Shown one piece after another: positions 46,764-51,229 of a DNA stretch of 64,000 bases. The notes below the pieces were generated by a model that was given only the letters and a program-made list of their open reading frames with translations, did not search any database and was not told the DNA's origin. Made by a program: the position numbers and the translations under genes. Each line of letters starts with the position of its first letter. Positions within the stretch are counted from its first letter, which is position 1. Origin of the DNA: Eledone cirrhosa (taxonomy: Eukaryota); NCBI GenBank assembly GCA_964016885.1, contig OZ024748.1:26970001-27034000 (forward strand), in the 5' to 3' direction.

Positions 46764-49700
46764 ATATATATGTGAGTATAGACATAGAATATTCGAAAAT
46801 ATTCTGTATGTTTATAATAAACATTTTGAAGACCTAATCGCTATAGAATAGAATACGTCACGTATTACAATTAGATTCTCGATAAAAGCAAGGGAAGTAA
46901 TCTACGCGTTTCATTCTTGTTAGAATTCATCAGGACTACATATCCAGTGCTTTTATCGAGAATGACACAGCTAGAGACTTATAGAATACTTAGCTGTGTA
47001 CTGGAACTGGTTTGAAAGAGCGGTTGCCGGTCCGGCAGAAATTAGAAATTGGAATAAATGCTCTGAAATAGCGATATATATGTGAGTATAGACATAGAAT
47101 ATTCGAAAATATTCTGTATGTTTATAATAAACATTTTGAAGACCTAATCGCTATAGAATAGAATACGTCACGTATTACAATTAGATTCTCGATAAAAGCA
47201 AGGGAAGTAATCTACGCGTTTCATTCTTGTTAGAATTCATCAGGACTACATATCCAGTGCTTTTATCGAGAATGACACAGCTAGAGACTTATAGAATACT
47301 TAGCTGTGTACTGGAACTGGTTTGAAAGAGCGGTTGCCGGTCCGGCAGAAATTAGAAATTGGAATAAATGCTCTGAAATAGCGATATATATGTGAGTATA
47401 GACATAGAATATTCGAAAATATTCTGTATGTTTATAATAAACATTTTGAAGACCTAATCGCTATAGAATAGAATACGTCACGTATTACAATTAGATTCTC
47501 GATAAAAGCAAGGGAAGTAATCTACGCGTTTCATTCTTGTTAGAATTCATCAGGACTACATATCCAGTGCTTTTATCGAGAATGACACAGCTAGAGACTT
47601 ATAGAATACTTAGCTGTGTACTGGAACTGGTTTGAAAGAGCGGTTGCCGGTCCGGCAGAAATTAGAAATTGGAATAAATGCTCTGAAATAGCGATATATA
47701 TGTGAGTATAGACATAGAATATTCGAAAATATTCTGTATGTTTATAATAAACATTTTGAAGACCTAATCGCTATAGAATAGAATACGTCACGTATTACAA
47801 TTAGATTCTCGATAAAAGCAAGGGAAGTAATCTACGCGTTTCATTCTTGTTAGAATTCATCAGGACTACATATCCAGTGCTTTTATCGAGAATGACACAG
47901 CTAGAGACTTATAGAATACTTAGCTGTGTACTGGAACTGGTTTGAAAGAGCGGTTGCCGGTCCGGCAGAAATTAGAAATTGGAATAAATGCTCTGAAATA
48001 GCGATATATATGTGAGTATAGACATAGAATATTCGAAAATATTCTGTATGTTTATAATAAACATTTTGAAGACCTAATCGCTATAGAATAGAATACGTCA
48101 CGTATTACAATTAGATTCTCGATAAAAGCAAGGGAAGTAATCTACGCGTTTCATTCTTGTTAGAATTCATCAGGACTACATATCCAGTGCTTTTATCGAG
48201 AATGACACAGCTAGAGACTTATAGAATACTTAGCTGTGTACTGGAACTGGTTTGAAAGAGCGGTTGCCGGTCCGGCAGAAATTAGAAATTGGAATAAATG
48301 CTCTGAAATAGCGATATATATGTGAGTATAGACATAGAATATTCGAAAATATTCTGTATGTTTATAATAAACATTTTGAAGACCTAATCGCTATAGAATA
48401 GAATACGTCACGTATTACAATTAGATTCTCGATAAAAGCAAGGGAAGTAATCTACGCGTTTCATTCTTGTTAGAATTCATCAGGACTACATATCCAGTGC
48501 TTTTATCGAGAATGACACAGCTAGAGACTTATAGAATACTTAGCTGTGTACTGGAACTGGTTTGAAAGAGCGGTTGCCGGTCCGGCAGAAATTAGAAATT
48601 GGAATAAATGCTCTGAAATAGCGATATATATGTGAGTATAGACATAGAATATTCGAAAATATTCTGTATGTTTATAATAAACATTTTGAAGACCTAATCG
48701 CTATAGAATAGAATACGTCACGTATTACAATTAGATTCTCGATAAAAGCAAGGGAAGTAATCTACGCGTTTCATTCTTGTTAGAATTCATCAGGACTACA
48801 TATCCAGTGCTTTTATCGGTCTCTAGCTGTGTCATTCTCGATAAAAGCACTGGATATGTAGTCCTGATGAATTCTAACAAGAATGAAACGCGTAGATTAC
48901 TTCCCTTGCTTTTATCGAGAATCTAATTGTAATACGTGACGTATTCTATTCTATAGCGATTAGGTCTTCAAAATGTTTATTATAAACATACAGAATATTT
49001 TCGAATATTCTATGTCTATACTCACATATATATCGCTATTTCAGAGCATTTATTCCAATTTCTAATTTCTGCCGGACCGGCAACCGCTCTTTCAAACCAG
49101 TTCCAGTACACAGCTAAGTATTCTATAAGTCTCTAGCTGTGTCATTCTCGATAAAAGCACTGGATATGTAGTCCTGATGAATTCTAACAAGAATGAAACG
49201 CGTAGATTACTTCCCTTGCTTTTATCGAGAATCTAATTGTAATACGTGACGTATTCTATTCTATAGCGATTAGGTCTTCAAAATGTTTATTATAAACATA
49301 CAGAATATTTTCGAATATTCTATGTCTATACTCACATATATATCGCTATTTCAGAGCATTTATTCCAATTTCTAATTTCTGCCGGACCGGCAACCGCTCT
49401 TTCAAACCAGTTCCAGTACACAGCTAAGTATTCTATAAGTCTCTAGCTGTGTCATTCTCGATAAAAGCACTGGATATGTAGTCCTGATGAATTCTAACAA
49501 GAATGAAACGCGTAGATTACTTCCCTTGCTTTTATCGAGAATCTAATTGTAATACGTGACGTATTCTATTCTATAGCGATTAGGTCTTCAAAATGTTTAT
49601 TATAAACATACAGAATATTTTCGAATATTCTATGTCTATACTCACATATATATCGCTATTTCAGAGCATTTATTCCAATTTCTAATTTCTGCCGGACCGG

Positions 49701-51229
49701 CAACCGCTCTTTCAAACCAGTTCCAGTACACAGCTAAGTATTCTATAAGTCTCTAGCTGTGTCATTCTCGATAAAAGCACTGGATATGTAGTCCTGATGA
49801 ATTCTAACAAGAATGAAACGCGTAGATTACTTCCCTTGCTTTTATCGAGAATCTAATTGTAATACGTGACGTATTCTATTCTATAGCGATTAGGTCTTCA
49901 AAATGTTTATTATAAACATACAGAATATTTTCGAATATTCTATGTCTATACTCACATATATATCGCTATTTCAGAGCATTTATTCCAATTTCTAATTTCT
50001 GCCGGACCGGCAACCGCTCTTTCAAACCAGTTCCAGTACACAGCTAAGTATTCTATAAGTCTCTAGCTGTGTCATTCTCGATAAAAGCACTGGATATGTA
50101 GTCCTGATGAATTCTAACAAGAATGAAACGCGTAGATTACTTCCCTTGCTTTTATCGAGAATCTAATTGTAATACGTGACGTATTCTATTCTATAGCGAT
50201 TAGGTCTTCAAAATGTTTATTATAAACATACAGAATATTTTCGAATATTCTATGTCTATACTCACATATATATCGCTATTTCAGAGCATTTATTCCAATT
50301 TCTAATTTCTGCCGGACCGGCAACCGCTCTTTCAAACCAGTTCCAGTACACAGCTAAGTATTCTATAAGTCTCTAGCTGTGTCATTCTCGATAAAAGCAC
50401 TGGATATGTAGTCCTGATGAATTCTAACAAGAATGAAACGCGTAGATTACTTCCCTTGCTTTTATCGAGAATCTAATTGTAATACGTGACGTATTCTATT
50501 CTATAGCGATTAGGTCTTCAAAATGTTTATTATAAACATACAGAATATTTTCGAATATTCTATGTCTATACTCACATATATATCGCTATTTCAGAGCATT
50601 TATTCCAATTTCTAATTTCTGCCGGACCGGCAACCGCTCTTTCAAACCAGTTCCAGTACACAGCTAAGTATTCTATAAGTCTCTAGCTGTGTCATTCTCG
50701 ATAAAAGCACTGGATATGTAGTCCTGATGAATTCTAACAAGAATGAAACGCGTAGATTACTTCCCTTGCTTTTATCGAGAATCTAATTGTAATACGTGAC
50801 GTATTCTATTCTATAGCGATTAGGTCTTCAAAATGTTTATTATAAACATACAGAATATTTTCGAATATTCTATGTCTATACTCACATATATATCGCTATT
50901 TCAGAGCATTTATTCCAATTTCTAATTTCTGCCGGACCGGCAACCGCTCTTTCAAACCAGTTCCAGTACACAGCTAAGTATTCTATAAGTCTCTAGCTGT
51001 GTCATTCTCGATAAAAGCACTGGATATGTAGTCCTGATGAATTCTAACAAGAATGAAACGCGTAGATTACTTCCCTTGCTTTTATCGAGAATCTAATTGT
51101 AATACGTGACGTATTCTATTCTATAGCGATTAGGTCTTCAAAATGTTTATTATAAACATACAGAATATTTTCGAATATTCTATGTCTATACTCACATATA
51201 TATCGCTATTTCAGAGCATTTATTCCAAT
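46764..51229. repeat. Retrozyme-like tandem array: ~14.4 copies of a 310-bp unit with one minimal type I hammerhead each, inverted at 48818/48819
   Basis: Period 310 (tgtgagtata at 46771, 47081, 47391...). Eight plus-strand CTGATGA cores at 48864+310n and seven minus-strand cores at 46927+310n. Confidence 0.95.
48858..48900 (+). ncRNA. Minimal type I hammerhead ribozyme (representative copy of the array)
   Basis: gtagtc-CTGATGA-attct aaca agaat-GAAA-cgcg-TA-gattac. Predicted cleavage after A48894 (GUA). Stem I is extended by attctcgataaaagca/tgcttttatcgagaat. Confidence 0.9.

Follow-up and report, generated by a model that had tools for sequence, protein, structure and literature searches.

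Head-to-head arrays of a 310-bp hammerhead retrozyme family in Eledone cirrhosa, with two fixed outer ends

A large palindrome in the genome of Eledone cirrhosa is real, and represents one insertion of a 310-bp hammerhead retrozyme. The head-to-head flip at its centre is the rule of this retrozyme family. The insertions probably arose by two-ended priming at (AT)n tracts, in which a borrowed Penelope-like enzyme would have started at two sites on one RNA, likely a circular one.

Structure of the insertion

The arms of the palindrome in the window (64,000 nt of contig OZ024748.1, the whole stretch of DNA analysed) lie at 46764-48818 and 48839-50893. They are exact reverse complements over 2055 nt (100%), with 20 nt between them. 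An exact palindrome with arms of about 2055 bp flipping at 48818 had been proposed in the original prediction, as had ribozymes on the minus strand at the left and the plus strand at the right, diverging 5′-to-5′; both are borne out, a motif scan giving seven cores on the minus strand and eight on the plus strand. The extent first given, 46764..50893, is that of the palindrome, but the array reaches 51229. The whole insertion is 46764-51229, and is asymmetric since the right array continues to that point. The features of the region are as follows, with unit positions numbered from the predicted ribozyme cleavage site.

44841..46723, plus strand: broken LINE remnant (RVT_1), unrelated; its (ATG)n 3′ end adjoins the left (AT)n tract
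46724..46763, unstranded: left (AT)n target tract
46764..48818, minus strand: left arm, made of 6.63 perfect 310-bp units and running from unit position 255 at its inner end to 131-139 at its outer (3′) end (site B, tail absent)
48818..48819, unstranded: head-to-head junction, blunt, without microhomology and without added bases
48819..51229, plus strand: right arm, made of 7.78 perfect 310-bp units and running from unit position 235 at its inner end to 165 at its outer (3′) end (site A, tail present)
48819..48838, plus strand: the '20-nt spacer', being the right arm's first 20 nt, with its complement absent from the left arm's inner end
48834..48922, plus strand: 16-bp inverted repeat of the unit, with halves at 48834-48849 and 48907-48922; it lengthens helix I
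48858..48900, plus strand: first plus-strand type I hammerhead motif, cleavage predicted after 48894
51195..51229, plus strand: 35-nt 'tail', unit positions 131-165, terminating the right arm and absent on the left
51230..51364, unstranded: right (AT)n target tract
51365..53640, minus strand: LINE remnant of another subfamily, unrelated; its 3′ end adjoins the right (AT)n tract

The left LINE remnant is presumably RTE-like, and it shares 67% protein identity with the right one. Two LINE remnants at 41857-43348 and 51321-52811 are about 95% identical and inverted, and flank the array region; they are separate insertions and lie outside the palindrome.

The 20 nt between the arms had been described as a spacer. 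The distance holds, but the bases are no separate sequence, only the start of the right array. The offset between inner ends is uniform across loci (see below), so the 20-nt offset in the window is within chance. The junction had also been placed inside the unit's 16-bp inverted repeat; its text is as quoted and the left-arm break does fall there, but the right-arm break does not. A 29-mer across the junction occurs once in the 3.0-Gb genome. A recurrent, hairpin-guided junction was considered and rejected, as the window junction is unique and the offsets are uniform.

The 310-bp unit

The unit has a period of 310 bp and a GC content of about 34%, and fits the range of non-LTR retrozymes (150-450 bp, GC <50%). 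The hammerhead repeats every 310 nt; its helix I has 6 bp, its helix II 4 bp, and its helix III is short and palindromic. The core bases and all three helices are complete in each of the 15 cores, and helix I variants across the family retain pairing. The Rfam model HH9 matches weakly (23 bits, E 0.005, against a gathering score of 52), and nothing in the window was found at Rfam gathering scores. Matches of microRNA type at the level of E-values, lying across the junction, were disregarded because they reflect the perfect hairpin. The monomer folds at -72.8 kcal/mol (z -4.4), with none of 100 shuffles equally stable. No frame of at least 100 aa lies wholly within the array, which is non-coding; an autonomous Penelope-like element was rejected, the array being without an RT and GIY-YIG coding frame. 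By its tandem size, GC content, hammerhead, lack of a frame and self-pairing, the unit is classed as a non-LTR retrozyme with predicted cleavage.

Metazoan non-LTR retrozymes are likewise tandem, non-coding units of 150-450 bp with low GC (PMC7229834; Li et al. 2026, 10.64898/2026.07.22.740005). They have one type I hammerhead per unit and a strongly self-paired monomer, and form arrays from dimers to tens of copies in company with Penelope-like elements (PMC7229834). Hammerheads with a short palindromic helix III are active in dimers, and this type is thought to cut as a dimer within multimers while sparing monomeric circles (PMC4209133). Self-cleavage, with accumulation as linear and circular RNA, is a further criterion of the class. 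The published arrays are head-to-tail (PMC7229834, 10.64898/2026.07.22.740005), unlike the present ones, which consist of two head-to-head arrays with two fixed outer ends. In the accessible text of these sources, the word 'inverted' occurs 0 times in PMC7229834 and in a reference title alone in Li et al. 2026.

Distribution across the genome

The unit gave 444 matches within 40 of 107 candidate regions. With the unit alone as query, and blind to orientation, the first 20 loci listed comprised 18 with minus/plus arms, two with a single arm and none with plus/minus arms. All 57 other two-armed loci examined are head-to-head, and no tail-to-tail single insertions were found among the loci sampled. 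The original prediction had pointed to the inverted, 5′-truncated architecture of Penelope-like insertions, and this is matched by the window and by those 57 loci.

Arm ends followed by (AT)n were sought on the forward strand and numbered 745 at site A (~165) and 1,020 at site B (~130-139), with 0 matches to the control patterns. Doubling these counts for the two strands, and taking 51 loci per first 73 Mb of C1, about 2,000 loci are estimated genome-wide. The C1 sample consists of those 51 loci, selected through ends adjoining (AT)n and all retrieved. Thirty-nine are two-armed and ten single-armed (nine B, one A), one has a second arm of about 11 nt, and one enters an assembly gap; some four-fifths of the insertions have the paired head-to-head build. 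AT-rich tracts adjoin the 3′ ends at the displayed loci, including 20 loci that were not selected on target.

At least half of the unit's words were present in 20 sequencing runs from 17 coded organisms and 16 studies, and one of these organisms (X4) has a single 340-nt contig with the unit, at depth 26 and with one difference. The occurrence in other organisms' runs may reflect carry-over of a very high-copy repeat, close relatives or horizontal transfer. Among the listed sequencing runs holding the unit there is no RNA run.

Two fixed outer ends and a shared haplotype

One arm ends near unit position 165 (A) and the other near 130-139 (B) in 57 of the 58 two-armed loci, window included. The modes are 165 and 130, and at these modal ends the A arm carries 35 extra bases compared with the B arm. 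For the small arms of L051 and L053 the ends (139) were taken from BLAST. In the first 73 Mb of C1 every head-to-head pair (30/30) combined an A end with a B end, an outcome with a chance of 1e-9 at even odds, and AA and BB pairs were just as findable. The same pairing was seen in 17 of 18 two-armed loci found without regard to their ends. At L037, the sole BB locus, the arms differ in haplotype and 23 added bases are present. Penelope-like insertions often have a 'tail' of 30-40 bp at one end alone, frequently carry an inverted 5′-truncated copy, and favour (TA)n (PMC8557442, PMC3846280); the 35-nt extension of one arm is this Penelope tail, on one side only.

Among the 31 C1 loci with a full unit in both arms there are at least 15 haplotypes. 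Both arms have the same haplotype in 28 of the 31, against a shuffled mean of 4.8 and a maximum of 12 (10,000 shuffles), and arms of different loci agree in 120 of 930 pairs. The three disagreeing loci show a mosaic of two haplotypes in one arm (L054), a difference in gap placement (L085) and one singly covered base (L097). In seven of 39 loci, a variant found at no other sampled locus is fixed across both arms. The haplotype sharing and the private variants fixed in both arms suggest one template per locus. Of the minority substitutions, one in 81 is common to both arms of a locus, out of register from the outer ends, a weak test since most of the 81 are probably later mutations.

Proposed two-ended priming

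Target-primed reverse transcription produces an antisense strand that extends inward from the flank. Given this chemistry, an antisense arm on each flank, the two meeting 5′-to-5′, suggests priming from both target strands. A borrowed Penelope-like enzyme would cut the (AT)n tract, so that both cut strands could serve as primers on one RNA, likely a circle, with start sites some 35 nt from each other. Repeated passage round the template would turn the two primers into antisense cDNA concatemers of independent lengths, one per flank. The free cDNA ends would next be linked at no fixed position, often via 2-3 nt of microhomology, and filling in of the second strands would leave two head-to-head arms of which one alone has the tail. 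Two RT centres on one RNA, one per site, would give both the A+B rule and the shared haplotype, and on a circle both arms could continue for many units past the two start sites. The Penelope-like enzyme, the single shared RNA, the circle and the order of the steps are what we infer. More tentatively, the two RT centres of a Penelope-like dimer may roll simultaneously round a single 310-nt ribozyme circle, each starting from a different end of the break, and would so have written some 1,500-2,000 perfect palindromes of kilobase scale into the genome, a version that we regard as plausible but short of probable. Circles as templates for copies exceeding unit length have been proposed previously (PMC4209133). 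The circle is no more than likely, since a homogeneous linear multimer transcript would also yield identical units, and the 10 of 51 C1 loci that are single-armed, together with the mosaic arm of L054, indicate that two-ended copying from one molecule is not obligatory.

Two-ended Penelope-type priming could instead have used a linear, uncleaved multimer, or two RNAs of the same source, with the B start taken before the A start. Such a template is unlikely, but it would yield the same end rule and a common haplotype, and a Penelope-like protein studied in vitro acts mainly on uncleaved RNA (PMC11167929). The mosaic seen in one arm of L054 suits a mixed template, and the mostly B-ended single-armed loci fit a B-then-A order. 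Against it, the ribozyme cut site shows no excess of inner ends. That the arms begin there was rejected, with one of 98 inner ends within 5 nt of the site and 3.5 expected, and the lack of a pile-up is as expected for a template without a 5′ end. The arm lengths fit an exponential with a mean of 1.5 kb and a maximum of 8.5 kb (n=89 arms), and the longest arms, at 27 units, also speak against a linear multimer, as does the view that this type of helix III cuts dimers and spares monomeric circles (PMC4209133). The near absence of shared, in-register minority substitutions counts weakly in the same direction.

Arm lengths and junctions

The loci divide equally, 29 having a longer A arm and 29 a longer B arm, and the two lengths tend weakly to rise together (rho 0.23-0.30, p 0.06-0.09). 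Where they differ by more than one unit, among the 39 two-armed C1 loci, B exceeds A in 13 and A exceeds B in 14. Inner ends are scattered around the unit, those of A arms uniformly (KS p 0.54). The offset between the two inner ends is also uniform (KS p 0.80), and is at most 20 nt in 10 of 51 loci; offset and microhomology counts cover 51 of the 58 loci, seven complex or indel loci being omitted. Microhomology of at least 2 nt is present at 22 of the 38 joins without added bases, where 18% is expected, and 13 loci have added or mismatched bases at the junction. The junction of L071 (2143-2320) shows a double inversion in which one 5-nt microhomology was used twice, and in L086 (1599-1870) an unrelated sequence of 272 nt, possibly captured in joining, lies between the arms.

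The original prediction had suggested a template switch or fold-back during reverse transcription. In a fold-back of this kind one strand is made first and copies back on itself, and the endonuclease later trims the ends. Self-priming on an antisense template has been proposed for Penelope palindromes (PMC3846280), and would account for the haplotype common to both arms. The 16-bp inverted repeat contains somewhat more inner ends than expected (18 of 98 against 10.1, p 0.018 uncorrected), and local copy-back pieces occur at the junctions of L071, L098 and L099. A copied arm cannot exceed its template, yet either arm may be the longer one; the offsets are uniform, and fold-back by itself offers no explanation for two fixed outer ends. 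Copy-back, including the self-priming of PMC3846280, predicts nested lengths and palindromic joins; neither was seen, and this origin is disfavoured and improbable.

Two independent insertions, or a later inversion in an ordinary tandem array, are very improbable: L037, with its BB ends, two haplotypes and 23 added bases, resembles two events, but haplotype sharing far exceeds the shuffled mean, the far end of an inverted segment would not fall at site A or B, and tail-to-tail single insertions were not seen in the sampled loci.

A long-read fold-back chimera, the caveat attached to the original prediction, or an assembly artefact at the window locus is equally improbable. The perfect identity of the arms would suit a chimera, and among the read-contig pieces listed (1,674 more lie outside the list) none spans the exact junction of the window. 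The unique flanks on the two sides are distinct, however, the arms are unequal, the ends are biologically patterned, and the same build recurs at 57 other loci with differing junctions and haplotypes, as well as in 18 of the 20 orientation-blind loci. In three runs of one sample the unit is at very high depth, and another joint, read as head-to-head with a short side of 18-20 letters, has depths of 27, 40 and 48; two weaker joints accompany it. The assembly may derive from this sample; the joints therefore lend no independent support, yet they are not single-read events. The family-wide build, the unequal arms and the scattered junctions argue against both a read chimera and a simple fold-back.

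Comparison with other target-primed elements

In twin priming by L1, two target 3′ ends prime one RNA to give a head-to-head join with short microhomology, and the first cDNA stops at the second primer. The present insertions differ in that both arms pass many units beyond both start sites. An L1-type twin-priming inversion was rejected, as the inner ends are uniform round the unit and do not abut the priming site of the other arm.

Insertions of endonuclease-bearing Penelope-like elements (Neptune, Penelope/Poseidon and Naiad) also have an inverted 5′-truncated copy in head-to-head orientation and a 30-40-nt tail at one end, and share the (TA)n targets, which mask target duplications, and the microhomology at 5′ joins (PMC8557442, PMC3846280). 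At the window locus, too, any target-site duplication would be hidden within (AT)n. The inverted copy and the one-sided tail are already known Penelope features; the two-armed arrays are useful mainly as mechanistic evidence. Unlike those insertions, the cargo here is non-coding and each arm is a concatemer of many units. Counted over 58 loci, the end rule and the single-template origin go beyond the Penelope precedents, and a homologous autonomous partner was not found in the loci searched.

The PAc protein (Poseidon, Anolis carolinensis) cuts and extends both strands of AT-rich DNA in vitro, starts inside the RNA at two sites that delimit a 30-40-nt tail, is a predicted dimer, and has uncleaved RNA as its dominant substrate (PMC11167929). 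The two-armed insertions resemble this reaction in their AT-rich target, the extension of both strands and two start sites downstream of the hammerhead. In the PAc study, as far as its accessible text goes, the RNA was linear, the start site was equal between strands, and joined two-armed products are not described (PMC11167929). A literature search, mainly of the main texts of freely available papers, found no paper on two-armed retrozyme arrays or single-template counts, nor two-ended priming as a Penelope model.

Candidate helper elements and related families

Elements that combine an RT with a GIY-YIG domain at the C-terminus are abundant (150 scored of 10,597 candidates). Most of the coding elements sampled have a Neptune-type zinc-finger linker, CxxxxCxxC, unlike PAc. 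Coding copies also occur in head-to-head pairs; a long and a short end could be seen in four of ten inverted pairs, the other six being unreadable. At L127 (1349-6518) and L136 (3760-7025), coding Penelope-like copies form 3-5-kb head-to-head palindromes that are long-ended on one side and short-ended on the other. No terminal repeat homologous to the unit was found in 40 of the 150 listed GIY-YIG loci (10,597 candidates), and no autonomous element with such a repeat beside 30 loci of a related family. Unit-like stretches near coding copies were considered as terminal repeats and rejected, being separate non-coding insertions in (AT)n tails.

An older related family, with 5,523 motif matches, ends in (AT)n near site A. 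Its sampled members (L142-L171) are about 75% identical to the unit over the 3′ region and are mostly short insertions of one or two units, with a degenerate hammerhead core and a conserved tail region. The conservation of the tail region and the (AT)n end near A suggest that the tail region is a recognition signal.

Another small family, at L135 (4630-4826) and L130 (8005-8205), forms head-to-head pairs in (AT)n with a hammerhead core like that of the unit, one arm being about 70 nt longer. Within the window, 14116-14429 is a miniature head-to-head element of another family, located between (AT)n tracts, with unequal arms that each contain a hammerhead-like core. More such cores, from other families, lie near AT-rich tracts at 15340-15962, 16103, 22218, 24401 and 54324, and the cores at 15499 (minus) and 15774 (plus) face head-to-head. 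A perfect palindrome with 237-bp arms and a 12-nt centre at 19558-20043 has no hammerhead core and is unmatched in the fetched loci.

Implications

The genome apparently tolerates well over 1,000 kilobase palindromes that are nearly perfect, and these could give rise to dsRNA and instability. A putative transcript across the window junction, in either direction, is predicted to form a perfect stem, and would probably pair before its first ribozyme folds. A 20-nt loop disfavours cruciform extrusion.

The mechanism of tandem and inverted insertion by Penelope-like elements has been called undefined (PMC8557442), and it is a published hypothesis that they mobilise animal retrozymes by way of circles (PMC7229834). 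The 310-bp family is young and of high copy number, and offers countable rules that distinguish the published self-priming from two-ended priming; its 310-nt unit is a substrate for an in vitro test. If a Penelope-like dimer does work on a ribozyme circle, the arrays would be a direct genomic record of two-ended rolling-circle integration, and this would settle both the origin of Penelope inversions and tails and the movement of animal retrozymes.
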